Shown piece by piece: positions 2,499-52,047 of a stretch of DNA of 64,000 nt. The stretch covers positions 6,785 through 70,784 of the forward strand of contig JALSQW010000019.1 of NCBI GenBank assembly GCA_026985095.1, read 5' to 3'. The position numbers and the translations under genes were made by a program. Source of the DNA: Acidimicrobiia bacterium. Its GTDB lineage: Bacteria; Actinomycetota; Acidimicrobiia; Spongiisociales; UBA5794. The notes under the pieces were generated by a model. That model was not told the origin of the DNA, searched no databases, and saw only the letters and a list, made by a program, of their open reading frames with translations. Every line of letters begins with the position of its first letter. The first letter of the stretch is position 1.

Positions 2499-2655
2499 GG
2501 ACCGCCTCCCTCCATGTGCTGGGCTCCGCGGGCGCGTGCACCCGCCTCTCTCGGGTCCAACCTACGCGCCTCACGGGTCGGGAGGGCGCGGAAAACGAGG
2601 GTTGCTTTTCGCGTTCTCGGCGGTCCCGGCCGCGGCCACGACGGCCCGGGGAGGG

Positions 2656-3219: not shown

Positions 3220-3232
3220 GCAACCGCCCTCC

Positions 3233-4323: not shown

Positions 4324-4390
4324 GTCCCAGACTCTAGTTCTCACCCGCCGCCGCCGCCCACGGTGGCACCACCGCCGAACCGTGGGCCGG

Positions 4391-4538: not shown

Positions 4539-4626
4539 CGGAGACGGTGCGGCGGTGGGGAACCGACTCGCCGTCGGCGGCGAGGCGGTTCATCATGCAG
4601 GAACCCGATCACACGAGGAGCCTGAC

Positions 4627-5355: not shown

Positions 5356-5364
5356 CCTCGATCC

Positions 5365-10587: not shown

Positions 10588-10826
10588 ACGACCACCCGGA
10601 AGGTTTCCAGGATGCCGTGGACCGTTTGGAGACCATCGTCGCCCGACTCGAATCCGACGACGCCGATCTCGATGTCATGGCCGCCGACGTAGCGGCGGCC
10701 AGCGAGCTCATCCGCTCGCTGCGAGCACGGATCACCGCGACCGAGATGCAGCTCGAAGAACTGCTCGGCACCCTCGACGCTCCCGCCGACGACGGCACGG
10801 ACGAGGACCACCCTCCGGTCGGGTAG
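10584..10826 (+). CDS. xseB: Exodeoxyribonuclease VII small subunit
   Basis: 80 aa. FQDAVDRLETIVARLESDDADLD is a typical XseB sequence. ATGA overlap with xseA. Confidence 0.85.
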   Translation: MNDHPEGFQDAVDRLETIVARLESDDADLDVMAADVAAASELIRSLRARITATEMQLEELLGTLDAPADDGTDEDHPPVG

Positions 10827-29024: not shown

Positions 29025-30461
29025 ATGACGGCGCCACGGCCCCTCGAACGCGTCTCGGACGATCTCCACGGCTACATCGAGCGTCTCCCCGTGGGGGTGT
29101 TCCAGACGACCCCCGACGGGCGGATCGTGATGGGCAATCCGGCCCTGGCCGAGCTCCTCGGTGCCCCTGACGTCGCCACCCTCCTCGACCTGTCCGTCAG
29201 GGACCTGTACGTCGAGCCCGAGATCCGCGACGGGTTCTTCGCCTCGTCGATCGACCGACCCATCCAACGGGACATCCAACTCGAGACCCTCGACGGTCGG
29301 ACCATCTGGGCCCGTTCGACCTGCCGTCCCATCTCGGGCCCCGACGGCGAGACCGTCCTCCTCGAAGGCATCCTCGAAGACGTCACCGACCGATACGAAA
29401 CCCAACGGCGTCTCGCCGACTCCGAACGCCTGTTCCGCACCGCCTTCCTCGACGCCCCCATCGGGATGATCATCAACTCCCCCGACCTGTCGGTCGTCCG
29501 CGCCAACCCCGCCTTCCTCGCCATGGTCGGGCTCCCTCCCGGAGCGGACCGGCTCCAGATCCGAGCGCTCGTCGACCGTAACGACATCGACGACATCCAG
29601 CGACGCCACGCCGCCATGACCGGCGGGACCCTCGACACCTACACCACCGATCGTCGCCTCCGCCGCACCGACGGAACGACCATCCCGGTGCGACTCCACG
29701 TCTCGGCCATCCGCTCGGCCGACAGAACCCTCCAATCGATCCTCACCCAGGTCGTCGACCAGTCCGACGCCGTCCGCTCCGAACGCGAGCTTCGCGAACT
29801 CGCCCGCTCGAAGGACGATCTCGTCCGGTCCGTCAGTCACGAGCTCCGGACCCCGCTGACGACCATCGTCGGCCTCGCCGCCGAACTCCACGAGCGTGCC
29901 GGTGACTTCTCCGACGCCGAACGCACCGAGCTCACCCGTCTGCTGGCGACGCAAGCCGACGAGATGGCCGACCTCGTCGACGACCTCCTCGCCGCCGCCC
30001 GCAGCGACGTCCTCGCCCTCGAGCTCAGGCTTCGGCCGACCGACATCGCCGCCGAGGTGCGGACCGTCACCGAGGCGTGGCGTCAGGGTGATCCCGAGCT
30101 GGCGCTGCCGGGGTCGCCCTGCATGGCGACGGTCGATCCGTTCCGGCTTCGCCAGATCATCCGCAACCTCCTCTCCAACGCCCACAAGTACGGCTCGGAA
30201 CCGATCACCGTCACCGTCGAGCACGACCACCCCGGCTGGTGTGCCATCCACGTCGCCGACGCCGGACAAGGGCTCCCCGAGAGCGAATGGGAAGCGATCT
30301 TCGAGCGGTACTACCGGGTGACCGATCTCCCCGGACTGCCCGGGTCGCTGGGCCTCGGCCTGGCCCTCGGGCGCCAACTCGCCCGCATGATGTCGGGCGA
30401 TCTCCGCTATCGCGTCGTCGACGGTCGCTCCGTGTTCACCCTCACCCTCCCCGCCGCCTGA
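29025..30461 (+). CDS. Soluble sensor histidine kinase with tandem PAS domains (HisKA + HATPase_c)
   Basis: H-box RSVSHELRTPLTTIVGLA, N/G boxes IRNLLSNAHKYG and GLGLGLALGRQLA, two PAS-like segments upstream, and no TM helices. No response regulator gene is adjacent. Confidence 0.85.
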   Translation: MTAPRPLERVSDDLHGYIERLPVGVFQTTPDGRIVMGNPALAELLGAPDVATLLDLSVRDLYVEPEIRDGFFASSIDRPIQRDIQLETLDGRTIWARSTCRPISGPDGETVLLEGILEDVTDRYETQRRLADSERLFRTAFLDAPIGMIINSPDLSVVRANPAFLAMVGLPPGADRLQIRALVDRNDIDDIQRRHAAMTGGTLDTYTTDRRLRRTDGTTIPVRLHVSAIRSADRTLQSILTQVVDQSDAVRSERELRELARSKDDLVRSVSHELRTPLTTIVGLAAELHERAGDFSDAERTELTRLLATQADEMADLVDDLLAAARSDVLALELRLRPTDIAAEVRTVTEAWRQGDPELALPGSPCMATVDPFRLRQIIRNLLSNAHKYGSEPITVTVEHDHPGWCAIHVADAGQGLPESEWEAIFERYYRVTDLPGLPGSLGLGLALGRQLARMMSGDLRYRVVDGRSVFTLTLPAA

Positions 30462-30519
30462 CCGCACCCGCAAGCGCCTCACTACCATCGGTCCCCGTTC
30501 CGTCCGACGGAGGTGGCCG

Positions 30520-31761
30520 GTGAGCGAGGTCGAGTTCGGGAAGGCCCTGGCCGAGATCGCCCTCCTCCTCGGGATCGGCTTCGCCCTCGGCACCGCCTTC
30601 GATCGGGTCCGCGTCCCCCGCATCCTCGCTTCCCTGTTCGTCGGCATGGGCGCTCACCTCGTCATCGGCAACCCCGATCCCTCCAGCCCCGTCGGATCCA
30701 TCCTCGGCCTCCTCGGGCAACTCGGCGTCCTGTGGCTGCTTCTCCTTATCGGCCTGGAGGTCGATCTGAAGGAGATGTCGCGCATGGGCGGCGACATCAT
30801 CCTCCTGACGGTTCTCAACACGACGGTGCCCTTCCTGCTCGGATTCGGGTTCATGGTGTCCCTGGGATACGGCGTGTTCCTGTCGTTGTTCATCGGCATG
30901 ACCCGGATGCCGACCGCCGAAGCCGTCGTCGTCCCCATCCTCGACGAGTTCGGCATGGTCAACACCCGGGTCGGTCGGTTCATCGTCGGCGCCGGCGTCC
31001 TCGACGACGTCATCGAGGTCATCTTGGTCGTCGTCACCTCGGTGTGGATCGGGACCGTGGCTGCCGGGAACCAGGGTCCGATCTCGGCCACGATCGAACA
31101 CGACATCTCCGACGTCCTGATCGGCGGTGTCGCCTTCGCCGTCGCCGCCTACACCGCCTACCGGTGGCTCCTGCCCTTCCTGGCGTCATGGACCCATCGG
31201 AAACCCCGCGAGCTCCTGCTGTTGAGCTCCGTGACGCTGTTCGCCCTCGGCGGCCTCGCCCAGTACGTCGGCCTCGGGCTCGTGGTCGGCGCCCTCATCA
31301 CCGGTGTCGTCCTACGACCGACCGTCGATGGGGATCGGCCCGAGCGAAGCGCCGTGCGTAACGCCATCGATCTGGGGGCCTACGGCTTCTTCGGCCCGAT
31401 CTTCTTCCTCTGGGTGGGCCTCTCGGTCGACCTGAGCGGCATGCTGAAAGCGCCCTGGTTGGCGGTCGGTCTGTTCTCGGCAGCGTTCTTCGGCAAGTTG
31501 ATCGGCGCCTGGCTGCTGGTTCCCTTCGGGCGAGCCACCAAGAGAGAGGCCCTCGCCACCGGCGTCGGGCTCAACGCCCGTCTCACGACCGAGATCATCG
31601 TCGCCCAGCTCCTCCTCACCGCCGGGATCATCAACGACCAGCTCTTCACCGCCCTCGTCGCCGCCTCAGGACTGTCGACGCTGCTCGTGCCGCCGCTGTT
31701 CGCCATCATGCTCGACCGCTGGGGACCCTCCCTCCGACCCGCCGAAACCGCCGCCGGATGA
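30520..31761 (+). CDS. Cation:proton antiporter (Na+/H+ exchanger, CPA family)
   Basis: 413 aa, about 12 TM helices. GTG start. ATGA overlap with the downstream P-type ATPase. Confidence 0.78.
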   Translation: MSEVEFGKALAEIALLLGIGFALGTAFDRVRVPRILASLFVGMGAHLVIGNPDPSSPVGSILGLLGQLGVLWLLLLIGLEVDLKEMSRMGGDIILLTVLNTTVPFLLGFGFMVSLGYGVFLSLFIGMTRMPTAEAVVVPILDEFGMVNTRVGRFIVGAGVLDDVIEVILVVVTSVWIGTVAAGNQGPISATIEHDISDVLIGGVAFAVAAYTAYRWLLPFLASWTHRKPRELLLLSSVTLFALGGLAQYVGLGLVVGALITGVVLRPTVDGDRPERSAVRNAIDLGAYGFFGPIFFLWVGLSVDLSGMLKAPWLAVGLFSAAFFGKLIGAWLLVPFGRATKREALATGVGLNARLTTEIIVAQLLLTAGIINDQLFTALVAASGLSTLLVPPLFAIMLDRWGPSLRPAETAAG

Positions 31762-34505
31762 GCGACCGCACCACCTCCACCGCCGCCAGCGCCGCCTCTG
31801 CGCCGACGTCATGGCATGCGATGCCCATCGATGACGTCGCCGGCGCCCTCGACACCGACATCGACCGCGGACTGACGTCGATCGACGCCGCCAAACGCCT
31901 CGACCGGTACGGGCCGAATCGGCTCGAGGAGGTGGGGAAGGAACCGTGGTGGAAGGCCCTCGCCCGACAGTTCCTCGATCCGCTGATCGGGATCCTCGCG
32001 GTCGCCGCCGTCATCTCGGTCGGCGTCGGCGACAGCGTCGACGCGATCGTCATCGTCGCCATCGTCGTCCTCAACGGACTGCTCGGCTTCGTCCAGGAGT
32101 ACCGGGCCGAGAAGGCCCTCGAGGCGCTGAAGCGGATGCTGACGCCGACCTGCATCGTGATCAGAGACGGCACGGAGCGGACGGTCTCCGCCGAGAGCCT
32201 CGTCCCCGGCGACGTCGTCGTGCTCGAGGTCGGCGACCAGGTTCCCGCCGACCTGCGTCTCGGTACCTCCCTCAACCTCCGGATCGACGAGTCGGCCCTG
32301 ACCGGCGAATCGGTCCCCGTCGCGAAGTCCACCGAACCGGTACCTCCCGACGCCCCCTTGGCGGAACGATCCGACATGGCCTTCATGGGGACGGTCGTCG
32401 TCAACGGTCGCGGCACCGGGATCGTGGTCGCCACCGCCATGGCCACCGAGTTCGGGCACATCGCCCGTCTGTCCCAAGAGCTCGGCACCGAGGAGACGCC
32501 GCTCCAGCGGCGGCTCGAGGGTCTCGGCAGACGCCTCGGTGCTTTGGTCGTCGTCATCGGCGTCATCGTGTTCGTCGGCGGTGTCCTCGCCGGCAAGCCC
32601 CCGCTCGAGATGTTCCTCACCGGCGTGTCGCTGGCGGTGGCCGCCGTCCCCGAGGGCCTCCCCGCGGTGGTGACGATCACCCTCGGCCTCGGGGTCCGCA
32701 ACATGGTGCGACGCAACGCGCTCATCCGCCGCCTACGGTCGGCCGAGACCCTGGGATCAGCGGACGTCATCTGCACCGACAAGACCGGCACCCTCACCGA
32801 GAACGAGATGACCGTCACCGAGATCTGGTTACCCGCCGGACCGGTCGTCGTCACCGGCACCGGCTACGACCCCGCAGGTCACTTCGAGGAACCCGGCCAT
32901 CTCGCCCACGGGAATCCCAGGCACAACCGCCGGGTGGACTACAAGCGGCGACCCGACCTGCGGGCACTGCTCGAGACCGGCCTGTACTGCAACCACGCGG
33001 CGCTCCAGCGAGATGAGCGCGGATGGCACGCGATCGGCGATCCGACCGAGGTGGCGCTCATCGTGGCCGCCTACAAGGCGTGGCTCAGTCCCAACGACCG
33101 AGACGAGCCGATCGCCGAGATCTCCTTCAACTCCCAGCGGAAACGCATGACCGTCGTCGTCCGCCACGATCACGGCCCGGTCGTCGCCCACATCAAGGGC
33201 GCCCCCGAGGTGATCCTCGAACGATGCACCAAGATCCTCGACGGCGATCACGAGCGGGCCATCACCGACGAGGACCGTGCGCGGGCGACTCGCGCCTTCC
33301 AGGAACTCGCCGAACGCGGCCTCCGCACGCTGGCGTTGGCTCGCCGACCGCTCGACCCCGACACGCCGATGGACGAAGCACACGTCGAGAACGACCTGAC
33401 GTTCCTCGGCATCGTCGGCATCATCGATCCGCCCCGTCCCGAGGTCCGTCCCGCCATCGAGGTCGCCAAGGGAGCCGGGATCCGCACCATCATGATCACC
33501 GGCGACGCCGCCGAGACCGCCCTCGCCGTCGCCCGGCGCATCGGCCTCCACGCCGATCGAGCCGTCATCGGTACCGACCTCGACGGCATGTCCGACGACG
33601 AGCTCGCCGAGGTCGTACGCGAGCCCGTGCTGTTCGCCCGCACCGCGCCCGAGCACAAACTCCGCATCGTCTCGGCCTTGCAACACCAAGGCGGCGTGGT
33701 CGCCATGACCGGTGACGGGGTCAACGACGCACCGGCCTTGAAGCAGGCCGACATCGGCGTGGCGATGGGTCGGCGCGGTACCGACGTCGCCAAGGCTGCC
33801 GCCGACATGGTCCTCACCGACGACAACTACGCCACGATCGTCGCCGCGGTCGAAGAGGGACGGCGCCTCTACGACAACATCCAGAAGTTCATCCGCTATC
33901 TGCTGTCATCGAACACCGGTGAGGTGCTGGCCATCTTCGCCAACATCCTCATCGGCGGCCCGCTCATCCTGCTCCCGGTGCAGATCCTGTGGATGAACCT
34001 GATCACCGACGGCATGACCGCCGTCGCGCTCGGGGTCGAACCGGCCGAACCCGACATCATGCGCCAGCCTCCCCGCGACCCGCGGGCCCCGATCCTGAGC
34101 CGGCATGCCATGACCCAGATCGGGCTCCTCGGCAGCTACGTCGGGATCGCCACCCTGGTCGTCTTCACGATCTACCTCGCCGGCAGCGACCTCCACGTCA
34201 CCAAGGCCCACACGATGGCCTTCACCGGCATCGTCATCTTCGAGAAACTGAACGTGTTCAACTTCCGCTCGCTTCGGTTGCCCCTGTACCGGATCGGGTT
34301 CCTGTCCAACCGATGGCTCCTGGCGGCGTGGGCGACCACGGTCTCGCTTCAGGTCCTCGCCGTGTACGCGCCGCCGCTGCAGCGGGCGCTCGGGACGGTG
34401 CCACTGCATGTGAACGACTGGCTCGTGATCTTCGCCGTGGGCGCCCCGATCTTCGTCATCACCGAGGGAGTGAAATGGTGGGGATCGCGGCGTGGGCGGC
34501 GCTAG
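31758..34505 (+). CDS. P2-type cation-translocating ATPase (calcium-transporting, SERCA/PMCA-like)
   Basis: 915 aa. DKTGTLTEN phosphorylation motif, TGDAAETA, GDGVNDAPALKQADIGVAMG, and N-terminal cation ATPase domain motifs (TGESVPV). Confidence 0.9.
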   Translation: MSDRTTSTAASAASAPTSWHAMPIDDVAGALDTDIDRGLTSIDAAKRLDRYGPNRLEEVGKEPWWKALARQFLDPLIGILAVAAVISVGVGDSVDAIVIVAIVVLNGLLGFVQEYRAEKALEALKRMLTPTCIVIRDGTERTVSAESLVPGDVVVLEVGDQVPADLRLGTSLNLRIDESALTGESVPVAKSTEPVPPDAPLAERSDMAFMGTVVVNGRGTGIVVATAMATEFGHIARLSQELGTEETPLQRRLEGLGRRLGALVVVIGVIVFVGGVLAGKPPLEMFLTGVSLAVAAVPEGLPAVVTITLGLGVRNMVRRNALIRRLRSAETLGSADVICTDKTGTLTENEMTVTEIWLPAGPVVVTGTGYDPAGHFEEPGHLAHGNPRHNRRVDYKRRPDLRALLETGLYCNHAALQRDERGWHAIGDPTEVALIVAAYKAWLSPNDRDEPIAEISFNSQRKRMTVVVRHDHGPVVAHIKGAPEVILERCTKILDGDHERAITDEDRARATRAFQELAERGLRTLALARRPLDPDTPMDEAHVENDLTFLGIVGIIDPPRPEVRPAIEVAKGAGIRTIMITGDAAETALAVARRIGLHADRAVIGTDLDGMSDDELAEVVREPVLFARTAPEHKLRIVSALQHQGGVVAMTGDGVNDAPALKQADIGVAMGRRGTDVAKAAADMVLTDDNYATIVAAVEEGRRLYDNIQKFIRYLLSSNTGEVLAIFANILIGGPLILLPVQILWMNLITDGMTAVALGVEPAEPDIMRQPPRDPRAPILSRHAMTQIGLLGSYVGIATLVVFTIYLAGSDLHVTKAHTMAFTGIVIFEKLNVFNFRSLRLPLYRIGFLSNRWLLAAWATTVSLQVLAVYAPPLQRALGTVPLHVNDWLVIFAVGAPIFVITEGVKWWGSRRGRR

Positions 34506-35440
34506 GCGGCGCCGGGGATCGTCGCTTCCAGTTCCAGCACCTCGGGTACGGTCGGCAGCGCGAGGCCGCGTTCGGACACCGAGCGAGCCGCCGCCGCGTT
34601 CGCGAACCTGACGGCTTCCGGCCAGCCCTCTCCGGTGGCCCGACGGACGGCGAGCGCGGCGATGAAGACGTCGCCGGCCCCGGTCTCGTCCACCGCCCGA
34701 ACGGGCGCGGTCGGGACGTGGCGGGTCCCCAGCGTGGTGTCCACCAGCAGGGAACCATGGGCCCCGAGCTTCACGACCGCCCGTTCGATCCCCAGGTCGA
34801 CCAGTTCGCGGGCCCCGAGCCATGGGGCCGCCTGGGTGGTGAGATCCCGACCGGTGAGCGCTGCCGCCTCCTCCCGATCAGGGGTGATGACCTCTGCCCG
34901 CTGCAATGCAGAGAGCGTGACCTGCTCGGGCGAGGCAGGATCCAGATAGACCGGGATGCCCTTCCCCGAGGCCCAGGTGAGGAGCCGATCCACCACGTCG
35001 GGAGGAACCTCCCCTTGGGTGAGCAGCACGTCGCGATCGGCGAGCTTCGCCAGCGCGGCCTCGACGTCGTTCCACGTGAGGTGGTTGTTGACGCCCGGTG
35101 AGAACACGAGTGAGACGTGATGGCCCTCGACGAGGCGGATCACGACGAAACCGGTCCGTTCGCCGGCGGTCACCGCGACGCCGTCGGCATCGACCCCGTC
35201 GCCCTCGACCGCGGCGACGCACAGATGGCCGAACTCGTCGTCGCCCACCCGTCCGACGAGAACGACGTCGGCGCCGAGCCTGGCTGCGGCCCGAGCCTGG
35301 TTGGCGCCCTTGCCTCCCGGTTCGATCAGGTAGTGGTCGGCGAGGTAGACGGCACCCACTCCCGGTTCCTCGACACCGAACAGGTGGATGTCCATGTTGA
35401 GGCCGCCGACGACGCCGATCCGGACCGGGTCGCCGTTCAC
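34502..35440 (-). CDS. Ribokinase/pfkB-family carbohydrate kinase
   Basis: VRIGVVGGLNMD N-terminus, GGKGANQA, and a C-terminal DTTGAGD-like motif (VDETGAGDVFIAALA). I chose the GTG at 35440, which overlaps the upstream stop (GTGA). The ATG at 35397 is an alternative start. Confidence 0.8.
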   Translation of the reverse strand: MNGDPVRIGVVGGLNMDIHLFGVEEPGVGAVYLADHYLIEPGGKGANQARAAARLGADVVLVGRVGDDEFGHLCVAAVEGDGVDADGVAVTAGERTGFVVIRLVEGHHVSLVFSPGVNNHLTWNDVEAALAKLADRDVLLTQGEVPPDVVDRLLTWASGKGIPVYLDPASPEQVTLSALQRAEVITPDREEAAALTGRDLTTQAAPWLGARELVDLGIERAVVKLGAHGSLLVDTTLGTRHVPTAPVRAVDETGAGDVFIAALAVRRATGEGWPEAVRFANAAAARSVSERGLALPTVPEVLELEATIPGAA

Positions 35441-36570
35441 GAGACCGCGACCCCCAGCAACGTGCCGATACCGAAGGTGACGGCGGCGGCAGCGAGCCCG
35501 AATCCCATCTGCCGGAACCCCGAGAACCAGACGTTGCGACCGGTCATCAGCGAGATCGCGGCACCGAGCCCGAAGAGTCCGAGGCCGCTGAGGACGATCG
35601 CCCCCCAGATCGCCGGAGCACCGGCGGACACGAGGAACGGGAACACCGGCAAGATCGCACCGGCGGAGAACAGGAAGAACGAGGCGAGGGCCGCCTCCCA
35701 CGGCGACCCACCGAGCTCGTCGGGATCGATCCCCAGCTCCTCACGGGCCATCGTGTCGAGTGCCTTCTCCTCGTCCTGCATCACCCGAGCCGCCAACTCC
35801 GCCGCCTGATCGGCCGGCATCCCCTTCGACTCGTAGATCAGCGCCAGCTCCTCGGCCTCCTCCTCGGGGATCTCGCGGATCTCACGTCGTTCGATCTCGA
35901 TCTGTCGTTCGTACAGCTCGCGCGACGACTGGACCGAGATCCATTCCCCCAGGGCCATCGAGATGGCTCCCGCGAGGAGACCCGCGACGCCGGCGATGAC
36001 GATGGAGCTGTTGGCGTCGGTGGCGCCGGCGACGCCCATGACCAGCGACATGTTCGACACGAGGCCGTCGTTGGCTCCCAGCACCGCCGCCCTGAGGGCG
36101 TTACCTCCGACGGCCGAATGGCGGCCCTCGATACGGGCGAGGACGGGACCGGTGATCGTCTTGGGCCCTTCGCCGGCCAGCTGGGCCAGGATCCGGGCAT
36201 GGGACCGCTCATCGGCGGGAAGGCTCGTGCCCTGCGTCTCGGGCTGGTCGTCGTACATGAACTGCCCGGCCTTCTCCTCGGCAGCCATGGTCGTGACCAG
36301 GACGTTGGTGCCGAGGCGCTTGGCCAGCCAGATGAGGATCTTGGCGCGCCGGGAAGGTTCGGGTTCGCCGAGTTCGACGCCGCCGGCGGCGAGCTTGTCG
36401 CGCCAGAACGCGGCGTGCCGCTCCTCGGTGGTGGCGAGCTTCCGGTAGAGCTCCTGCAGTGCCGGGTCCGACTCCATGTCGGCCAGCGCCCGGTACATCG
36501 CCGCGCCGTCGATCTCGTCCTGGTAGTTCTCTCGGTACCGTGCGATGTCCTCGGCGGTCGCCATGTCCAC
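35437..36570 (-). CDS. Ferritin-like (rubrerythrin/erythrin-type) domain fused to VIT1/CCC1-family iron/manganese transporter
   Basis: N-terminal ferritin-like four-helix segment (AAMYRALADMES...TTEERHAAFWRDK) followed by a VIT1 membrane domain (GANDGLVSNMSLVMGVAG...). Confidence 0.85.
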   Translation of the reverse strand: MDMATAEDIARYRENYQDEIDGAAMYRALADMESDPALQELYRKLATTEERHAAFWRDKLAAGGVELGEPEPSRRAKILIWLAKRLGTNVLVTTMAAEEKAGQFMYDDQPETQGTSLPADERSHARILAQLAGEGPKTITGPVLARIEGRHSAVGGNALRAAVLGANDGLVSNMSLVMGVAGATDANSSIVIAGVAGLLAGAISMALGEWISVQSSRELYERQIEIERREIREIPEEEAEELALIYESKGMPADQAAELAARVMQDEEKALDTMAREELGIDPDELGGSPWEAALASFFLFSAGAILPVFPFLVSAGAPAIWGAIVLSGLGLFGLGAAISLMTGRNVWFSGFRQMGFGLAAAAVTFGIGTLLGVAVS

Positions 36571-36636
36571 ACCCTTTCGCGAAGCACCTGCAGACTACCG
36601 GAGGCACCGAGCCCAGCCGGGCGCCCGCGACGCATG

Positions 36637-36662
36637 CCCACCCCGGGTGGGGTGGTATACTC
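36637..36662 (+). promoter_or_regulatory. GC-rich inverted repeat CCACCCC-GGGT-GGGGTGG directly abutting a TATACT -10-like hexamer, upstream of the cytochrome c/copper-ATPase pair. It resembles CsoR-type copper-repressor operators.
   Basis: Read directly: 7-bp perfect arms with a 4-nt spacer at 36638-36655, then TATACT at 36656-36661, about 80 bp upstream of the cytochrome c ATG. Confidence 0.4.
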
Positions 36663-36738
36663 CCGGGTGCCCCGCCCCCGATGGCGTCGACGCCGTCGGG
36701 TCGATGGTCCCATCCCGAACCCCACCGAAGGTCCCTCG

Positions 36739-37122
36739 ATGCGCCGCATGATCATCGGAGTCACGATCGCCGCCATCGCGCTGATCGCTCTCGCCTTCGC
36801 CCTCGGCGACGGCGACGGCGACGGATCCGGCGCCCTGCCGGCCGGCGACCCGGTGCGAGGCCAGACGCTCTTCGAGCAACGATGTGCCGCCTGCCACGGC
36901 ACCGACGCCGAGGGGACGACCCAGGGGCCGCCACTGGTCCATCCCTTCTACCGGCCCGGCCACCACGCCGACGGCGCGTTCCTGATCGCCGTTCGACGAG
37001 GCGTGACCCCGCACCATTGGAACTTCGGACCGATGCCCGCCATCCCGGATCTCTCCGAACAGGCCATCGCCGACATCACCCGCTACGTCCGCGGCCTGCA
37101 GGAGGCCGCCGGAATCCGCTGA
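36739..37122 (+). CDS. Class I c-type cytochrome (monoheme, secreted/membrane-anchored)
   Basis: Signal/anchor MRRMIIGVTIAAIALIALAFA, heme-binding CAACHG, downstream Met ligand region. Only the last 127 aa of the 334-aa track ORF is used. The stop lies 12 bp before the ATPase start, which has a GAGGAG Shine-Dalgarno. Confidence 0.8.
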   Translation: MRRMIIGVTIAAIALIALAFALGDGDGDGSGALPAGDPVRGQTLFEQRCAACHGTDAEGTTQGPPLVHPFYRPGHHADGAFLIAVRRGVTPHHWNFGPMPAIPDLSEQAIADITRYVRGLQEAAGIR

Positions 37123-37136
37123 CGAGGAGATCGACC

Positions 37137-39194
37137 ATGCACGACCACACCGACCACGACCGACCCGCGGCGACCGGCACCGGCTCGCCCCCCGCCGAAC
37201 GCGACCAGCACGCAGACCACGGCGGCCACGACAAGCACGAGGGTCACTCACCCGAGATGTTCCGCGACCTGCTCGCGATCAGCATCGCCCTCACCCTGCC
37301 GATCCTGTACTTCTCGCCGCAGATCCAGACGTGGTTCGGATACGAAGCGATCACGTTCCCCGGGTCGTGGCTCATCACCCCGGTCCTGGCAACGATCCTG
37401 TACTTCTACGGCGGTCGGCCGTTCCTCGTCGGCGCCCGCCGCGAGCTGCGTGCCCGCATGCCCGGCATGATGACCCTGATCACGGTCGCCATCACCGTCG
37501 CGTACGCCTACAGCATCGCCGTCACGTTCGGGTTCCCCGGCGAACCGTTCTACTGGGAACTGTCGACGCTGATCGTCGTCATGCTCCTCGGCCACTGGAT
37601 CGAGATGCGGTCGGTCCAGAGCGCCTCTCGCGCCCTCGACGAGCTCGCCAAGCTCCTCCCCACCGAGGCGCATCGCCTCGACCCCGACGGGTCGATCGTG
37701 GACGTTCCGATCGACCAGCTCCAGATCGGTGACCGGATCCTCGTCCGTCCGGGCGAGCAGATCCCCGCCGACGGGTTCGTACAAGAGGGCCGTTCGTCGG
37801 TCAACGAGGCGTTCCTGACCGGCGAGTCGCGGCCCGTCACCAAACAGGAAGGCGACGAGGTCGTCGCCGGCGCGATCAACGGCGAGGGAGCGCTCACCAT
37901 CGAGGTGTCCCGCGTCGGCGGCGACACCACGCTGTCGCAGATCATGCGGCTCGTCGAGGAGGCTCAGCGATCCCGATCGCGGTTCCAGGTCCTGGCCGAC
38001 CGGGCAGCGTTCTGGCTCACGGTGATCGCCCTCGGCGTCGCCGCTCCCACCTTCCTGATCTGGTTCGGCGTCGGCGCAGGGGTGACCTTCGCGGTCACCC
38101 GGATGGTCACCGTCCTCGTCATCGCCTGCCCTCACGCCCTCGGCCTGGCCATCCCCCTGGTCACGGCCAACGCCACCTCGATGGCCGCATCCCACGGCGT
38201 GCTCGTCCGCAACCGAGAAGCCTTCGAGCGCGGCTATGCCGTCGACGTCGTGGCCCTCGACAAGACCGGCACCCTCACCGAGGGTCGGTTCGCCGTCTCC
38301 GCGATCGGCACCGACCGCATCGACGCCGACCGAGCCCTGGCCCTGGCCGCCGCCATCGAACGATCCTCCGAGCACCCCCTCGCCTCGGCCATCGTCGACG
38401 CCGCCACCGAACGCGGCGTCGACGTCCCCACCGCGACCGACGTCGCCGCGGTCCCCGGACGCGGCATCCAGGCCCGCATCGACGGCATCGCCTACGCCGT
38501 CGGAGCACCCGAATGGGCGGCGGAACTCGACGCCACCGTCCCACCGGCGGTGCGAGAGGAGCTCGCCGAAGCCGACCGCCGCGGCGAATCGGCCGTCGTG
38601 GTCATGTCCGAAGGGAAGGCCATCGCCGCGATCCGACTGGCCGACAGGATCCGGCCCACCGCGGCGGCCGCCATCCGGGCGCTCCGCGAGATGGGTGTCG
38701 AACCGGTCATGATCACCGGCGACGCCGAAGCCGTGGCCCGCACCGTGGCCGGAGAGCTCGGCATCGAGCGCTACTTCGCCAGGGTCCTGCCCCAGGACAA
38801 GGCCCGCATCGTCGCCGACCTGAAGAAGACCGGGAAGGTGGCCTTCGTCGGAGACGGCATCAACGACGCACCCGCCCTGGTCAACGCCGACCTGGGCATC
38901 GCCATCGGGGCAGGCACGAACGTGGCCATCGAATCGGCCGACCTCGTGCTGGTCGAAGACGACCCCCGCGGCGTCCCCCGGGCCCTTCGATTGGCACGTC
39001 TCACCCGCCGCAAGATGGTGCAGAACCTGGCGTGGGCTACGGGCTACAACGTCATCGCCATCCCCCTCGCCGCCGGGGTCGCCTACACCGCCGGGCTCGT
39101 CCTCTCTCCCGCGGTCGGCGCGTTGTTCATGTCGCTGTCGACGGTGATCGTGGCGGTCAACGCCATGGCGATGCGCCGCGTCGATCTGACGTGA
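37137..39194 (+). CDS. Heavy-metal (copper) translocating P1B-type ATPase, CopB-like (P1B-3: His-rich N-terminus, CPH motif)
   Basis: His-rich N-terminus (HTDHDRP...HADHGGHDKHEGH), TM6 CPHALG, DKTGTLTEG, GDGINDAPAL, HPLASAI. The CPH motif plus the His-rich tail are characteristic of P1B-3/CopB pumps. Confidence 0.88.
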   Translation: MHDHTDHDRPAATGTGSPPAERDQHADHGGHDKHEGHSPEMFRDLLAISIALTLPILYFSPQIQTWFGYEAITFPGSWLITPVLATILYFYGGRPFLVGARRELRARMPGMMTLITVAITVAYAYSIAVTFGFPGEPFYWELSTLIVVMLLGHWIEMRSVQSASRALDELAKLLPTEAHRLDPDGSIVDVPIDQLQIGDRILVRPGEQIPADGFVQEGRSSVNEAFLTGESRPVTKQEGDEVVAGAINGEGALTIEVSRVGGDTTLSQIMRLVEEAQRSRSRFQVLADRAAFWLTVIALGVAAPTFLIWFGVGAGVTFAVTRMVTVLVIACPHALGLAIPLVTANATSMAASHGVLVRNREAFERGYAVDVVALDKTGTLTEGRFAVSAIGTDRIDADRALALAAAIERSSEHPLASAIVDAATERGVDVPTATDVAAVPGRGIQARIDGIAYAVGAPEWAAELDATVPPAVREELAEADRRGESAVVVMSEGKAIAAIRLADRIRPTAAAAIRALREMGVEPVMITGDAEAVARTVAGELGIERYFARVLPQDKARIVADLKKTGKVAFVGDGINDAPALVNADLGIAIGAGTNVAIESADLVLVEDDPRGVPRALRLARLTRRKMVQNLAWATGYNVIAIPLAAGVAYTAGLVLSPAVGALFMSLSTVIVAVNAMAMRRVDLT

Positions 39195-39252: not shown

Positions 39253-39855
39253 ATGAGCAACGCACCGAAGAAGACCCGATCGAAGCGGCCGGCCGCCCAG
39301 CAGCGGCAGACCCCAACCACCCCTTCGCCGTGGCCCAAACGCATCCTCGTCGGCCTCGGCACGATCGTCGGCCTCGCGCTCGTCGTCATGATCGCGTTCC
39401 AGCCCCAACCCCTCCGCGGGGTACCCGACGGGACCGAGGAGGTCGCCGTGGCGTCCGGGCAACACGTCGACGCCGACATCTACGGCGCCGACGAGGTCCC
39501 CGCCGGCGGGCCGCACTCGTCCATCTGGCAGAACTGTGGGTTCTACGACCAGCCGATCGAAGCCGAGAACGCGACCCACTCTCTCGAACATGGCGCCGTC
39601 TGGGTGACCTACCGTCCCGGCGACGTGGACGGCTCGACCCTGAAGCGGTTCGTCGGTCGAGTCGACAAGGTGATCGTCAGTCCGGTGGCCGGTCAAGAAG
39701 CGCCGATCATGGCCACCGCCTGGGGTCATCGCCTCACGTTCGACGACCCCGACGACCCGAAGCTCGAGCAGTTCGTCAACGAGTTCAAGGGATCCAGCGA
39801 AGCTCCCGAGCCCGCAGGCGCCTGCAACGGTGGCGTGGGCCAGCCCAGCTTCTAG
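39253..39855 (+). CDS. DUF3105 domain-containing membrane-anchored protein
   Basis: N-terminal TM helix, then [35 protein letters not shown], which matches the DUF3105 family. This is a recollection-based call. Confidence 0.7.
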
Positions 39856-39941: not shown

Positions 39942-39993
39942 CAGACACCGGTACCGTGGGACGATGACAGACACCGGTACCGTGGGACGATGA
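39942..39993 (+). repeat. Perfect 26-bp tandem duplication (CAGACACCGGTACCGTGGGACGATGA x2) overlapping the start codon of the downstream gene
   Basis: Read directly. Copy 2 contains the annotated ATG (39990). Copy 1 supplies an upstream ATG (39964) that opens a 9-codon uORF ending in TGA at 39991-39993, overlapping the main ATG (ATGA). Confidence 0.8.
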
Positions 39994-42062
39994 ACCGACT
40001 GGCCGATGCAGCATCTCCCTACCTGGCCCAGCATGCCGACAACCCGGTCGACTGGTACCCGTGGAGCGACGAGGCGTTCGCCGCGGCCCGGGACCGCGAT
40101 GTCCCCATCTTGCTGTCGGTCGGCTACTCAGCATGCCACTGGTGCCACGTCATGGCCCACGAGTCCTTCGAGGACCCCGAAACGGCCGACTACCTGAACG
40201 CCCACTACGTCAGCATCAAGGTCGACCGAGAGGAACGTCCCGACGTCGATCGCATCTACATGGACGCCGTCCAAGCCCTCACCGGCCGAGGTGGCTGGCC
40301 GATGACGGTCTTCCTCACTCCCGACGGCCGTCCGTTCTACGGTGGCACCTACTTCCCCAAGAGCCCGCGGCCGGGCATGGTGTCGTTCCGCCAGCTCCTC
40401 GAACGCATCCATGAGCTGTGGGAACGCGAGCGCCACGCCCTCGTCGACCAGGCCGACCGTCTGACCGCGGCGATCCGCGAGGCCGTGCCGCCGGCAGGCG
40501 ACACCCCGCACCGAGAAGCCCTCGACCAGGCCATCGACCGGATCTCGGCGACCTACGACGGCGAGCTCGGTGGGTTCGGGAACGCACCGAAGTTCCCGCA
40601 GCCCTCCACCCTCGAGTACCTGCTCCGCTACGCCGCCATCGGAGGCGATCCCGATCGGCGGGCCTTGGCCACCCGGATGGCGACCGTCACCCTCGACCAC
40701 ATGCAGCGAGGCGGCATCCACGATCAGCTCGGTGGGGGGTTCGCTCGCTATTCGGTCGACCGGCACTGGTTGGTGCCGCACTTCGAGAAGATGCTCTACG
40801 ACAACGCCCTCCTGGCGCGGGTCTACCTCCGGGCATGGCAGATCACCGCCGACACGACCTTCCTGGCCACGGCACGCTCGACATATGGGTATCTCCTGTC
40901 CGATATGTCCGATCCCCTCGGTGGATTCCACTCCGCCGAAGACGCCGACTCCGAGGGGACCGAGGGGCGCTACTACGTGTGGACCTGGGAGGAGCTCGGC
41001 GCCGCTGTCGGGGACCGTCGCGACATCGCCGCCCGTATCTACGGCGCCACCCCGGAAGGGAACTTCGACGGAGCCAACATCCTCCATCTCCCCCGGCCAC
41101 TGCCCGAGACCGCCCGGCTCCTCGGTGTCGACGCGGATCAACTCGCGATGGTGAAAGCGTCCATCGACGACGATCTGCGAGCCGCCCGATCCGCGCGGAC
41201 TCGTCCCGACCGGGACGACAAGCTCGTGACCGCCTGGAACGCGTTGGCGCTCCGTTCCTTCGCCGAGGCGGCTGCCATCTTGGACGACCCCGCCTACCTC
41301 GCCGCCGCCACCCGCATCGCCGAGTACCTGGTGGATGCCGCAGCCGAGCCCGACGGCCTCCGCCGGAGCCGCCGCGGGCACCAGCTCGGACCGCGCGCGT
41401 TCTGTGACGACCATGCGGCCTCGGCCATCGGCCTGTTCACGCTGTTCGGCGTCGACGGGAACGAACGGTGGTTCCGAGCCGCCGAGCAACACGTCGCCAC
41501 CCTCCTCGGGGACTTCGCCGATCCCGACGGCGGGTTCTTCGCCACCCGCGCCGACGGCGAGACCCTCATCGCTCGACCGAAGAACCTCCAGGACAGCCCG
41601 GTTCCCTCCGACAACGCGCTCGCGGCCGAGGCGCTCCTCATGCATCATGCACTCACCGGCGACGACGACGCCGTCGTGGCACTCGAAGCCACGGTCCGGG
41701 CCGCCGCCACCACCGCGATCGCGCATCCGACCTTCTCGGGTCACCTCCTCGCAACGTGGCTCACCTACACCGCCGGCATCGACGAGGTCGCCATCGTCGG
41801 AGACGCCGAACGTCGGCGACCCCTCGAGCGGGTCGTGTGGGAACGGTTCCGGCCCACCGCGATCGTCGCCGTCGGCGACGGCACCCCCACCGACGTCCCG
41901 CTCCTGGAGGACCGTCCGGGCGGGGCCACCGCTACCGCCCACGTCTGCCACGACCTGATCTGCGAGCTTCCCGTGTCCGATCCCGACGCGCTCCGCGTGC
42001 TGCTCGAGACCCGACCGACGACCTCGCCAGGTCACCGCCGAGATCCCGAAATCCTTGGCTAG
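39990..42062 (+). CDS. Thioredoxin-domain protein of the DUF255/YyaL family (N-acylglucosamine-2-epimerase-like six-hairpin C-terminal domain)
   Basis: [69 protein letters not shown] is the canonical DUF255 thioredoxin-like N-terminus. Only the 3' 690 aa of the 910-aa track ORF is used. Confidence 0.85.
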
Positions 42063-46882: not shown

Positions 46883-47206
46883 CTAGGAAGCGTCCTCGAT
46901 CGCGGTGGCCACGAATCGCCCGTCGGGCGCCTTCTCGTAGAAGACCCTGACCGGGTCGCCCGACACGACGTGGGACGTCAGATGACTCAGCGGCCCCCCA
47001 TCGAACGTGACCTCCTCGGCCGGGAAGAACCGCACCTGTGTGCCCTCCTCGGTGAGGAGGGTGAACGATCGGACGGTCGTCAGGTCCCCGTCCACCTCCA
47101 GCACGACCCCGACCGTCGATGGCCCCTTGCCGCCGCCGCATCCGGCGATCGTCGACGCCGCGATCAGCACCACCGCCACGAGGGAGGCGAGACGGATCAC
47201 CCTCAT
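46883..47206 (-). CDS. Small lipoprotein (hypothetical)
   Basis: Lipobox LIAASTIAGCGGG. 107 aa. Its start overlaps the ctaG stop (ATGA). Only the 3' part of the 279-aa track ORF is used. Confidence 0.55.
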   Translation of the reverse strand: MRVIRLASLVAVVLIAASTIAGCGGGKGPSTVGVVLEVDGDLTTVRSFTLLTEEGTQVRFFPAEEVTFDGGPLSHLTSHVVSGDPVRVFYEKAPDGRFVATAIEDAS

Positions 47207-48024
47207 CGTCGGGGACGTTGGAGAACCGCCGGCCCGCGCTCGAACCGTTGCTCCTCGTTGTACCACGAGAACCAGACCCACCCGATGAATCCCCACAGCC
47301 ACAGGGTGCCGCCGATCTTCATGATCAACCCGGCGAGGATCTGGTCGGTCATCACATCGATCCCCCACAGTCGCGGGAACGTCTCGTAGATCGGGTACAG
47401 CGGCGACGACCCGAGGGTCATGAACGCGGCGGGGATGTTCGGCACGATGCCCTGCAGGAACAGGTACCCCATCTTGCCCATCGGGGTCAACGTCCGGGTG
47501 TCCGGGATCGGCTCCATCACCGGCCACCACATCATGATGGCCGTCAGGAACAAGGTGGCATGGGCGAAGAAATGGAAGAAGCTGTTGGTGTCCATCGCCA
47601 CGACCACCGACGGCACATGGATGAACGCCAACCACACGTTGAACGCCAGCAACGCCACGATGGGCCGGGTGAGGACCTTCACGAGCGGCAGCACCGGGCG
47701 CACGATCGCACGCAGGAACCACCAGGGGATGCCGACCAGCAGCATCGGAGGAACCACGAAGGCGAACATCAGGTGCTCCACCATGTGGAACATGAACAGA
47801 CGCTGCTCCGCGATGTCGTGGAACGGCCAGATCGACACGATGACCAGCACCACCAACCCGCCGTGGAACAGCAGGCGTTGGCGCGCCGTGACGGGAGGTT
47901 CGTCGACCGGGCAGTAGCGGCCCGCGAGCCTACGGATGCCGTACTCGTAGCCCACCGCGAGCGCCCCGATCAGGCCGAGGACATCCAGGTGAAGGTGGAA
48001 CGGAGGAAGGCCGCCTGCACCCAT
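47203..48024 (-). CDS. ctaG: Caa3-type cytochrome c oxidase assembly factor CtaG-like membrane protein
   Basis: Polytopic His/Trp-rich membrane protein (HDIAEQRLFMFHMVEHLMFAFVVPPMLL, HFFAHATLFLTAIMMWWPV) matching the Caa3_CtaG family. I used the internal ATG at 48024. The upstream extension in the track ORF is an implausible W/C/S-rich sequence. Confidence 0.75.
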   Translation of the reverse strand: MGAGGLPPFHLHLDVLGLIGALAVGYEYGIRRLAGRYCPVDEPPVTARQRLLFHGGLVVLVIVSIWPFHDIAEQRLFMFHMVEHLMFAFVVPPMLLVGIPWWFLRAIVRPVLPLVKVLTRPIVALLAFNVWLAFIHVPSVVVAMDTNSFFHFFAHATLFLTAIMMWWPVMEPIPDTRTLTPMGKMGYLFLQGIVPNIPAAFMTLGSSPLYPIYETFPRLWGIDVMTDQILAGLIMKIGGTLWLWGFIGWVWFSWYNEEQRFERGPAVLQRPRR

Positions 48025-48025
48025 G

Positions 48026-48313
48026 TCAGAAGGCGCGGAAGCTCGCCAGGACCACGGCGAACACGACGGTCGCACCGGCCAGGCCGATGAGGAAATAGAA
48101 CCGATACGCCTTGAGGTCGTAGCGAAGGTGCATGAACACGGCCACCACCACCGCGAACTTGGCGGAACCAAGGAGGATCAGAAGGACGGCTCGGATCGGA
48201 TCGAGCGCATCGATGTACGGGACGGTGACCTCGATGGCGGTGACGATCCCGAGGAAGAGCGCGATCAGCCAGTAGGTCTTGGCCGTCGGATGGGCGTGGG
48301 TCGCGGTAGCCAT
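48026..48313 (-). CDS. Cytochrome c oxidase subunit IV (small prokaryotic/actinobacterial type)
   Basis: 95 aa with two TM helices. It sits directly downstream of ctaE in the oxidase operon, and HAHPTAKTYWLIALFLGIVTAIEV resembles bacterial subunit IV proteins. Confidence 0.7.
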   Translation of the reverse strand: MATATHAHPTAKTYWLIALFLGIVTAIEVTVPYIDALDPIRAVLLILLGSAKFAVVVAVFMHLRYDLKAYRFYFLIGLAGATVVFAVVLASFRAF

Positions 48314-48315
48314 GG

Positions 48316-48917
<602 letters not shown>

Positions 48918-48918
<1 letters not shown>

Positions 48919-50816
48919 CAGTGGGCCTCCTTGGTGATCGGTTCGCCCGCCCACCCCATGAACCCCCACAGGGAGACGATCGCGCCGAGGGCGAGGAGAC
49001 CGAACCCGATGGCGCCCGAGGAGATGAACACGAGGCCGGCTCCGAGGATGACCACACCAGCCGACGCGATGATCGGGAAGTAGGAGGGCGACGGCATGTG
49101 GATGTCGTGCGCATCTGCGTCGCCGTCTTCCCCTCCGGTGTCGGTGTCGACCGTCAACGCCCCGCCGCTCACCTCGGGCATCTTGACGGCTCGCCCGTCC
49201 TCGTCGATCCCGTACTTGCGGTACCAGAAGTCGTCGACGTGGTGAACGACGGGGACCTCGTCGAAGTTGTGCACCGGCGGCGGTGACGATGTGGTCCATT
49301 CCAGGGTCCGACCGTCCCACGGATCGTTGCCGGCCGGCTCGCCGTTGCGCCAACTCCGGATGATGTTCCAGATGAACACGAGGACGCCGACGGCGATCAG
49401 GTAGGACCCGATCGTCGACATCAAGTTCCATCCGTCCCATCCGAGCCCGGCGTCGTAGCGGTACGTGCGCCGAGGCATGCCGTCGAGGCCGAGGATGTGC
49501 TGTGGGGCGAAGGTGAGGTTGAACCCGATGAGCGTGATCCAGAAGTGCCATTTCCCGATCGTCTCGCTCAGCATCTTGCCGGTCCACTTCGGGAACCAGT
49601 AGTAGGCGCCGGCCATGTAGCCCAGCACCGCCCCACCGAACAACACGTAGTGGAAGTGGGCGACGATGTAGTAGCTGTCGTGCTGTTGGGTGTCGGCGGG
49701 CACGATCGAGTGGGTGACACCCGACAGGCCACCGATGACGAACATGGAGATGAACCCGAGGGAGAACAGCATGGGGGTGGTGAGCTTCAATCGCCCACCC
49801 CACGTCGTGCCGATCCAGTTGAAGATCTTCACCCCGGTGGGGATGGCGATGAGCATCGTGGCGAGACCGAACCCGGCTTCGGCGACCGGGCCGAGCCCCG
49901 CGGTGAACATGTGGTGCGCCCAGACACCGAACCCGAGGAAGCCGATGGCGATCCCCGAGAAGACGACGAACGCGTACCCGAACAGCGGCTTGCGGCTCAT
50001 GACCGGCAGGATCTCCGAGACGATGCCCATGGCCGGCAGGATCAGCACGTACACCTCGGGATGCCCGAAGATCCAGAACAGGTGTTGCCACAGGAGCGGA
50101 TCGCCTTGCGCCTGGGCGGCGTAGAACAACGTTCCGAAGTTGCGGTCGAACAGCAACTGCCAGAGGCCGACGCCGATGACCGGCAACGAGAGGATCAGCA
50201 GGAACGAGGTGACGACCGTCATCCACACGAAGACGGGCATCCGCATCAGGCTCATCCCCGGTGCCCGCATCGTGAAGATCGTGGCGATGAAGTTGATGGA
50301 ACCCGCCAGCGACGCCACACCGAGGAGCTGCGCGCCGACCGAGTAGTAGTCCATCCTGACGTACTCGGTGAGCTGGGTCGACAGCGGCGCGTAGCCGACC
50401 CAGGCGCCGTCGGGGGCGCCTCCGAACAGGAAGGACGTGTAGAGGAACAGGGCGCTGAAGAAGAACAGCCAGAAGGCGAAGGCGTTGATGCGAGGGAACG
50501 CCACGTCCCTGGCTCCGATCTGGAGCGGGACGAAGTAGTTCTGGAAGGCGGCGGCGATCGGCATGATCACGGCGAACACCATGGTCAGGCCGTGCATGGT
50601 GAAGATCTGGTTGTACGCCTCGGCCGACAGCACCGTCCCGTTGGGGCCGGCGAGCTGCGTCCGGATCAACAGCGCTTCGAAGCCGCCGACCAGGAAGAAG
50701 ATGAAGGCGGCGACGGCGTACATGATGCCGATCCGCTTGTGGTCGACGGTGGTGATCCAACTCCACACGCCCCGGTCGGCCGCGGCCGGTGCCTGCTCTC
50801 TCGTCGCTACCGCCAT
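48918..50816 (-). CDS. ctaD: Cytochrome c oxidase subunit I (heme-copper oxidase catalytic subunit) with about 60-aa C-terminal hydrophobic extension
   Basis: 632 aa. WITTVDHKRIGIMY, WFFGHPEVYVLILPAMG, HHMFT, HFHYVLFGG. The C-terminal tail PSPSYFPIIASAGVVILGAGLVFISS...LWGFMGWAGEPITKEAH adds two extra TM-like segments. Confidence 0.95.
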
Positions 50817-50841
50817 CGTTCACCTCGTTGGGTCATCGTCG

Positions 50842-51915: not shown

Positions 51916-52047
51916 CGTCGTCGCGGACCTACGGGCGGGGGTCGTCTGGTTCGATCGGATCACGCTGGCGGGTTCCTGTGGGTGTTCGGCTGGCTGGGAT
52001 GGTAAACGCTGCGGGCGGCGACACAAACCGCGGCCCACGCCGGGTCG

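Follow-up and report, generated by a model that had tools for sequence, protein, structure and literature searches.

We analysed a 64-kb stretch of DNA with 68% G+C from an Acidimicrobiia bacterium (contig JALSQW010000019.1 of assembly GCA_026985095.1, positions 6,785 to 70,784; hereafter the window), in which a gene for a small c-type cytochrome is followed by a gene for a CopB-type copper ATPase. The source is a metagenome contig of 179,672 bp (ENA ERZ27262647, k141_300494). These genes very probably form a copper-stress efflux operon under repression by a Cu(I)-sensing CsoR. This regulator would be encoded at another place in the genome and would bind a G/C-rich inverted repeat (the box) in front of the cytochrome gene. 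A more speculative proposal, which we hold only tentatively, is that the cytochrome may be the functional partner of CopB, acting as a haem-based cuprous oxidase or as a copper acceptor with a site at H75-H76 and H92-H93. The regulatory logic is an ordinary one, shared by csoR-copZA operons in general and by the Mycobacterium tuberculosis cso operon. The locus appears to differ from described systems in its unlinked csoR, in a c-type cytochrome that is the first gene and a conserved partner of a CPH-type pump, and in an invariant four-His signature. The features are listed in Table 1, and related loci are referred to by number (L003, L004 and so on).

Table 1 Features of the cytochrome-CopB locus (positions in the window)
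Feature	Position	Strand	Basis or remark
VIT1/CCC1-family transporter with ferritin-like N-domain	35437..36570	-	shares the 168-bp intergenic region
Predicted CsoR-type operator, CCCACCCC-GGGT-GGGGTGG	36637..36655	none	pseudo-palindrome, two G/C tracts
Predicted extended -10, TGG-TATACT	36653..36661	+	sequence; TGGTATA invariant in L003 and L004
Presumed 5' leader	36662..36738	+	Shine-Dalgarno GAAGG at 36727-36731
Mono-haem class I cytochrome c, membrane-anchored or secreted, 127 aa	36739..37122	+	PF00034, E=2.9e-14
CopB-type (P1B-3) copper-exporting P-type ATPase, 685 aa	37137..39194	+	TIGR01511, E=8.5e-180
DUF3105 membrane protein	39253..39855	+	starts 58 nt past the ATPase
Thioredoxin-like DsbH/DUF255 protein	39990..42062	+	synteny kept only in L004

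Predicted operator and promoter in front of the cytochrome gene

The box lies in a 168-bp intergenic region between two divergent genes, where the sequence CCCACCCCGGGTGGGGTGG is found at 36637-36655. A repeat finder resolves it into perfect 7-nt arms (CCACCCC/GGGGTGG, 36638-36655) with a 4-nt spacer, and also finds a second register (CCCACCC/GGGTGGG, 36637-36651). CsoR/RcnR proteins bind pseudo-palindromic sites that contain stretches of four or more G or C (PMC10318464), and two such stretches are present in the box. The exact sequence CCACCCCNNNNGGGGTGG occurs once in the 64 kb and in none of 100 dinucleotide-preserving shuffles. When two mismatches were allowed, two extra sites were found in the window, both inside coding sequences and not above chance. 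The hexamer TATACT (36656-36661) directly abuts the right arm of the box, and TGG plus TATACT fits an extended -10 element (TGnTAnnnT) whose TG falls inside that arm. The predicted -10 of the copper-gene operon and the putative operator share this TG, and the M. tuberculosis CsoR site likewise overlaps promoter elements (PMC10318464). The end of the -10 is 77 nt from the ATG of the cytochrome gene, in agreement with the distance of about 80 bp given in an earlier note on this DNA.

The box closely resembles published CsoR sites. The M. tuberculosis CsoR operator is 5'-GTAGCCCACCCCCAGTGGGGTGGGATAC-3' (PMC10601412), and positions 36633-36660 of the window are identical to it at 22 of 28 positions, including both full arms and the trailing ATAC. 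The CsoR of Thermus thermophilus binds CCCCACCCCACCTGGGGTGGGG (PMC10318464), with which the box shares 16 of 22 positions. The earlier note had pointed to a likeness to the mycobacterial CsoR box, and this likeness is borne out both by the published site and by the presence of the same box before csoR genes elsewhere, as described below.

The two closest orthologous loci, L003 and L004, were obtained from a scan for the cytochrome family in species-representative genomes. In L003, where the ATPase is 94% identical to that of the window, CCCACCCCGGGTGGGGTGGTATA is kept exactly and the flanks on both sides have diverged. In L004 (ATPase 86% identical), we found another palindrome of the same class, ACCCCTCC-CCC-GGAGGGGT, the right edge of which, GGGGTGGTATACT, is identical to that in the window. 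The palindrome upstream of orthologous ATPase genes is therefore exact in one relative and a variant in the other.

We also scanned public metagenome contigs for CCCACCCCNNNNGGGGTGGTAT and found 45 loci in 39 distinct contexts. A csoR gene starts between -2 and +52 nt from the end of the box in 15 of the 45 loci (14 of them distinct). Because the chance of a random position lying so near a csoR start is roughly 1e-5 by our own estimate, the association of the box with csoR is not due to chance. The 15 box-linked csoR products are 51-57% identical to Rv0967 and contain the Cys-His-Cys ligands of Cu(I), and a copper ATPase gene usually follows ~0.7-0.9 kb after the csoR. In three more metagenome loci, the box precedes a copper-ATPase operon. 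A 25-mer of the window, CCCACCCCGGGTGGGGTGGTATACT, which includes TATACT, is identical in L093, L101 and L124. The CsoR behind an identical box has more than 1000 close homologues, and all the named ones are from Acidimicrobiia. In the Acidimicrobiia metagenome-assembled genome GCA_036398015.1, CCACCCCGGGTGGGGTG is located ~20 nt upstream of csoR-copZ-copA, and in GCA_013003395.1 the same three genes are preceded by CACCCCTCCCCGGGTGGGGTA, a variant similar to that of L004. The two box variants before the cytochrome-CopB operon appear to mirror two variants before csoR itself. The box thus recurs at the promoter of csoR both in contigs of other organisms and in an Acidimicrobiia genome. The prediction that it is a CsoR-type operator of mycobacterial flavour is strongly supported by these comparisons.

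Some of these loci also bear on the csoR promoters themselves. In L083, L088, L089, L092, L093 and L106, csoR starts 9 nt past the GGTAT of the box, and the csoR transcripts in these loci may be leaderless and start right after a TATACT-type -10.

Canonical CsoR operators of the form ATACCCC-N-GGGGTAT are found in Bacillus subtilis, Streptomyces and Corynebacterium. Like them, the box in the window is located at a promoter and has an ACCCC...GGGGT core, but it flanks the core with C/G rather than T/A, which is the flavour of the M. tuberculosis-like CsoR clade. The two operator flavours track two CsoR clades, both of which are present in Acidimicrobiia. The M. tuberculosis-like CsoRs (L083-L124, L131) are found behind CCCACCCC..GGGGTGG boxes. 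More B. subtilis-like CsoRs are encoded in L015, L064, L068, L078 and L082, and ATACCCC..GGG(G)TAT boxes precede them where the upstream sequence was readable (L015, L064 and L078). In L068, L078 and L082 the gene order is csoR-copB-cytochrome, and in L078, where this was checked, a canonical ATACCCC..GGGTAT operator lies upstream of that operon; operators of the same type stand before csoR in L015 and L064.

Two other sequence elements were seen near the box or among its matches. The presumed leader contains a near-perfect palindrome of 24 nt, CCCGATGGCGTCGACGCCGTCGGG (36677-36700). It was rejected as an RNA element or second operator: its folding energy is not better than that of shuffled sequences (z = -1.23), an Rfam search with it gave no match, and it is partly kept in L003 and absent in L004. 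Five low-GC metagenome contigs (L086, L094, L097, L104 and L119, 28-33% G+C) contain the same 22-nt pattern as CCCACCCCTAAAGGGGTGGTAT, followed by a T run. The flanks of CCCACCCCTAAAGGGGTGGTAT are identical across the five contigs, and the element looks like a terminator hairpin or a repeated element unrelated to CsoR.

The pump, the cytochrome and their pairing in relatives

The ATPase is by its sequence a regular CopB/P1B-3 pump, as the earlier note had claimed. In addition to TIGR01511 it scores against TIGR01525 (E=1.3e-182), PF00122 and PF00702, and it contains the core motifs TGE228, DKTGT375 and GDGIND572. The CPH motif is located at residues 331-333 (38127-38135) within VIACPHALG. The N-terminus is rich in histidine (37137-37247, including GHDKHEGHS), with 8 His within the first 60 residues; no CxxC is present, and a PF00403 search for an HMA domain gave no match. 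The sequences NLAWATGYNVIAIP at residue 630 and PAVGALFMSLSTVIVAVN at residue 658 fit the signatures NX5GYNX4P in transmembrane helix 7 (TM7) and MSLSTX5N in TM8. Arguello is said to have described NX5GYNX4P in TM7 and PX(n)MSxSTX5N in TM8 as P1B-3 signatures in 2003. Among solved structures, the ATPase is best matched by Legionella CopA (3rfu, E=1.9e-133) and by the catalytic domains of Archaeoglobus fulgidus CopB (3skx, E=1.2e-65). P1B-3 pumps have been reclassified as Cu(I) exporters (PMC7558416).

The cytochrome has the features of a class I c-type cytochrome: a CxxCH haem site (CAACH, residues 49-53, 36883-36897), a distal axial Met99 (37033-37035) in the family-invariant FGPM99P, an export signal and the fold. 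The small CAACH cytochrome of the earlier note thus stands, with the length and Pfam score in Table 1. C-type cytochromes are matured on the outer face of the membrane. Because of its N-terminal hydrophobic helix (residues 5-22), and because a Cys of lipoprotein-like type follows this helix in several homologues (alignment judged by eye), the cytochrome is predicted to be located on the outer face of the membrane.

Two His pairs distinguish this cytochrome from its solved relatives. In an alignment of 48 homologues with 39-80% identity, the invariant residues are C49xxC52H53, FGPM99P, Y71, H75, H76 and D78 (in PGHHAD), and H92, H93 and W94 (in PHHW). The pairs H75-H76 (36961-36966) and H92-H93 (37012-37017) are both absent from the nearest solved cytochromes, which are CcoP-type domains. 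Of 80 genomic loci, 79 encode the H75-H76 pair, which the search pattern did not contain. The His pairs together with Y71 and D78, being invariant across several phyla, may constitute an extra metal site. An AlphaFold2 model of the cytochrome domain has pLDDT >90, and its top Foldseek matches are cytochromes c6, c552 and cL; this fold search returned generic class I cytochromes only, and no copper-binding cytochrome. A literature search found no characterised member of the four-His cytochrome family.

The two genes are separated by 14 nt, from the stop of the cytochrome gene to the start of the ATPase gene, and the ATPase gene has its own Shine-Dalgarno sequence, GAGGAG (37124-37129). The earlier note had counted 12 bp and called the pair translationally coupled, which is overstated given this gap and the separate ribosome-binding site. 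The two genes are probably co-transcribed. DUF3105 is the probable third gene of the transcription unit, and the DsbH/DUF255 gene may be co-transcribed as well; no terminator was predicted from the ATPase gene through position 43300. The cytochrome-ATPase pair is likewise found together with a DUF3105 gene in L003, L004, L007, L008 and L012, and in L010 such a gene comes straight after that of the cytochrome. The module may include DUF3105 as its third component.

Relatives have kept the cytochrome-ATPase pair. We surveyed the neighbourhoods of 80 cytochrome-family loci in species-representative genomes, and the commonest neighbour is a P1B ATPase, which is found in 20 of the 80 loci and always on the same strand. 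Further neighbours are cupredoxins (9 loci), SHOCT membrane proteins (8), CsoR (5), CopC-CopD fusions (4) and DUF305 proteins (4), as well as DUF3105 proteins. All ATPases that directly adjoin the cytochrome are CPH-type and His-rich and contain the conserved GHDKHEGHS. The gaps between the two genes are mostly 9-57 nt, and either gene order is found. CPC-type pumps occur only at a distance from the cytochrome, with one partial exception (L073). The tight pair is found in 13 of 33 Acidimicrobiia loci, 1 of 16 Nitriliruptoria loci and 1 of 31 loci of other phyla (Tistlia consotensis, in the order copB-cytochrome), and tight pairing of CopB with the cytochrome is mainly an Acidimicrobiia trait.

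Other regulators are found at some of these loci. In L011 and L058, a MerR gene is divergent from the orthologous cytochrome-CopB operon and the promoter is of MerR type, with a long spacer. MerR control thus appears to have taken the place of the CsoR box, a switch from one family of copper sensors to another. The promoter in L011 (~3150-3290) and L058 (~9860-10000) reads TTGAC(C/A)TTC.AGT.GACT.GAAGGT.TACGGT, and the ATPases are 65-67% identical. We note that the MerR reading frame of L058 is broken near the N-terminus, through an assembly error or as a pseudogene. A subgroup of Acidimicrobiia loci (L008, L009, L012, L005, L006 and L010) encodes a LuxR-type response regulator, a cupredoxin, a small SHOCT membrane protein, a cytochrome c, CopB and DUF3105. 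This order is probably a third regulatory arrangement, a two-component system.

Homologues of the cytochrome are also encoded on 162 plasmids of cultured Alphaproteobacteria. Their mature part is 53-60% identical to the cytochrome in the window, and the His pairs are kept. The contexts are annotated copper-resistance islands in all four plasmids examined, and these islands contain multicopper oxidases, plastocyanin/azurin-type proteins, outer-membrane CopB, YHS, SHOCT and DUF305 proteins, and heavy-metal ATPases. Pairing with CPH pumps was looked for and not found on these plasmids: the ATPases there are of the CPC type, have CPMHPE/CPxCGM N-termini, and are not encoded directly beside the cytochrome.

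Proposed function and alternatives

The proposed mechanism is as follows. At low copper, apo-CsoR encoded elsewhere would sit on the pseudo-palindrome at 36637-36655, binding as two tetramers by analogy with M. tuberculosis. Its occupancy would overlap the TG of the extended -10 and block RNA polymerase. When cytoplasmic Cu(I) rises, the Cys-His-Cys site of CsoR would be loaded, CsoR would release the DNA, and the operon would be transcribed, comprising the cytochrome c gene, copB, probably the DUF3105 gene and perhaps the DsbH-like gene. CopB, with its CPH membrane site and His-rich N-terminus, would then export cytoplasmic copper, and the cytochrome on the outer face would handle the exported copper or its redox consequences. 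Most plausibly, the cytochrome would take an electron from exported Cu(I) and pass it to the respiratory chain, or would bind the metal via its His pairs, which in either form would be the copper-contact site. As a cuprous oxidase it would convert Cu(I) to Cu(II), with the electron going to the respiratory chain, for example to the caa3 oxidase. CsoR binding in this organism, induction by copper and co-transcription of the operon are what we infer from the comparisons above.

These components have precedents in known systems. The M. tuberculosis cso operon (csoR-Rv0968-ctpV) has the same kind of operator, CCCACCCC-N4-GGGGTGG(G/T)ATAC, overlapping a promoter and controlling a copper P1B ATPase, and its CsoR is the one to which the box-linked CsoRs elsewhere are 51-57% identical, with the same Cu(I) ligands. 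It differs from the locus in the window in three respects. Here csoR is outside the operon and absent from the 72 kb examined; the pump is a CPH-type, His-rich CopB, whereas CtpV of M. tuberculosis is CPC-type; and the first gene encodes a c-type cytochrome, which the M. tuberculosis operon lacks. Like the CopB proteins of Enterococcus hirae and A. fulgidus, the pump has the CPH motif and the signatures NX5GYNX4P and MSxSTX5N, and its N-terminus is a His-rich extension rather than an HMA domain. Unlike in those systems, it has an extracytoplasmic cytochrome c as a partner and GHDKHEGHS just before the first membrane helix, and its predicted regulator is CsoR rather than CopY.

The nearest precedents for an extracytoplasmic partner are the cupredoxin CopI, and CopJ, which are copper-induced periplasmic redox proteins encoded beside copA in Rubrivivax gelatinosus (PMC4600104). 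Like these proteins and the multicopper oxidases CueO/PcoA, the cytochrome would be an extracytoplasmic redox-type protein encoded beside a copper ATPase and induced with it. The likeness lies in the setting and the proposed role; here the protein carries haem c rather than copper. Multicopper oxidases and cupredoxins themselves adjoin homologues of the cytochrome on plasmids. Conserved detoxification strategies include the extracytoplasmic oxidation of Cu(I) to Cu(II) (PMC7558416).

Several observations weigh against the proposal. The first concerns the regulator gene. Searches of all six frames of the 64-kb window (tblastn and phmmer), with the CsoR sequences of M. tuberculosis and B. subtilis and with E. 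coli RcnR as queries, found no csoR, as the earlier note had said. The best match, an open reading frame at 10584-10826 (E=0.064), is XseB according to Pfam. No PF02583 gene is present in the 8 kb past one window edge either, where genes for CO dehydrogenase are found instead. Regulation by a CsoR acting in trans is nevertheless what we have good grounds to expect. The second concerns the promoter: no canonical sigma-70 -35/-10 pair of the E. coli type was detectable, and the promoter call therefore rests on the extended -10. The third is that the box may regulate the divergent VIT1 gene too, or instead. The remaining points concern the cytochrome. Its role is conjectural, and the modelled fold is one common to generic electron carriers. 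In addition, many loci of other phyla encode the cytochrome family with no copper genes nearby, next to RmuC, acyltransferase or ABC genes. Because such loci occur in several non-actinobacterial phyla, the family is not exclusively copper-linked.

Of the alternatives, the one that survives best keeps the same regulation and makes the cytochrome a replacement electron carrier under copper stress, without direct copper chemistry. Assembly of c-type cytochromes is one of the main processes hit by periplasmic copper toxicity (PMC4600104), and both the generic c6/c552-type fold and the members of the family without nearby copper genes would suit such a carrier. We regard this as rather unlikely, since it leaves unexplained the tight pairing with CPH pumps in either gene order as well as two His pairs that are invariant across phyla and absent from solved relatives.

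The earlier note had read the pair as dedicated copper delivery for cuproenzyme assembly. On this reading, a CopA2/CcoI-like pump would supply the caa3 oxidase, and the cytochrome would provide the link to the oxidase. A caa3 oxidase operon is indeed located ~8 kb downstream (47203-52038, minus strand), encoding a CtaC-cytochrome c fusion, CtaD, subunit IV and the assembly factor CtaG. "CopB" is also among the alternative names of CopA2-type pumps that supply cuproenzymes (PMC7558416), and docking of a cytochrome c on caa3 is conceivable in principle. However, six unrelated genes of opposite orientation lie between the pair and the oxidase operon, and the flanks of the 80 related loci, which in some cases span 10 kb on each side, contain no homologue of CtaC, CtaD or CtaG. 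The neighbours are resistance genes rather than Sco or PCuAC chaperones. Genes for copper export are typically under the cytoplasmic sensors MerR, ArsR or CsoR (PMC7558416), and control by an excess-copper sensor, here suggested by the predicted CsoR operator and by csoR or MerR genes in relatives, is a hallmark of detoxification (PMC7558416). The locus thus shows neither the linkage to oxidase biogenesis nor the independence from excess-copper sensors that characterise CopA2/CcoI-type pumps. We consider delivery to the oxidase improbable, and this claim of the earlier note is not upheld; the plasmid copper-resistance islands speak against it as well. Because orthologous pairs are wired to excess-copper sensors and have resistance genes as neighbours, with no oxidase genes in the 80 loci, comparative evidence points to detoxification rather than oxidase assembly as the function of the pair.

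Still less probable is that the box is bound by another CsoR/RcnR paralogue, such as a Ni/Co-sensing RcnR/InrS-like protein, a RicR-like protein or a persulfide or aldehyde sensor, or that it mainly controls VIT1. CsoR-family proteins that answer to different effectors often coexist in one bacterium (PMC10318464), and only 66 nt separate the box from the VIT1 start codon, an arrangement kept in L003 and L004. On the other hand, the regulators behind the exact box type all have Cu(I) Cys-His-Cys ligands and are found in csoR-copZ-copA operons, and the box overlaps a -10 that faces the copper genes. Finally, the reading of the box as a chance G/C palindrome or RNA hairpin with no regulatory role is effectively refuted: short G/C palindromes are common at 68% G+C and several low-GC metagenome matches resemble terminator hairpins, but the box is absent from the shuffles, is conserved against diverged flanks, is massively associated with csoR starts, and lies upstream of the -10 between divergent genes, so that it is not in the operon mRNA and is no terminator.

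If the copper-efflux reading is right, it extends CsoR biology to an uncultured actinobacterial class. It also illustrates how an operator prediction can be tested without the genome, namely by examining the genes that follow each occurrence of the box in public metagenome data. Little is understood of CopB-type pumps: the copper species that they transport was revised only recently, and we know of no extracytoplasmic partner of CopB. The cytochrome with its His cluster offers a testable hypothesis for the fate of exported copper where no periplasmic multicopper oxidase adjoins the pump. If the cytochrome does oxidise copper, this would be detoxification without multicopper oxidases, in effect respiration on exported copper, and the family would be a recurrent and unrecognised part of plasmid copper-resistance islands in marine Alphaproteobacteria. 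Conjugative plasmids of the Roseobacter group widely carry the family, and these are cultured bacteria in which genetic work is feasible.

Divergent gene and wider neighbourhood

The gene divergent from the operon encodes the VIT1/CCC1-family transporter (Table 1). Co-regulation of this iron/manganese exporter with the copper genes is possible. L003 has kept the sequence AGACTACCG of 36571-36636, and L004 has kept part of it; on the minus strand this sequence includes TAGTCT, which may be a -10.

Two further groups of genes were seen in the window. An ion-homeostasis run at 29025-34505 encodes a PAS histidine kinase, a Na+/H+ exchanger and a 915-aa P2-type (Ca2+-like) ATPase, and is followed by a PfkB-family kinase gene on the opposite strand. 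A cluster of CO-dehydrogenase/xanthine-dehydrogenase type is present at ~1-5400 of the window and also in L128; the genes at ~1-5400 encode CoxG, a Fer2 small subunit, a molybdopterin large subunit, an FAD subunit, XdhC and a CoxE-type VWA protein.

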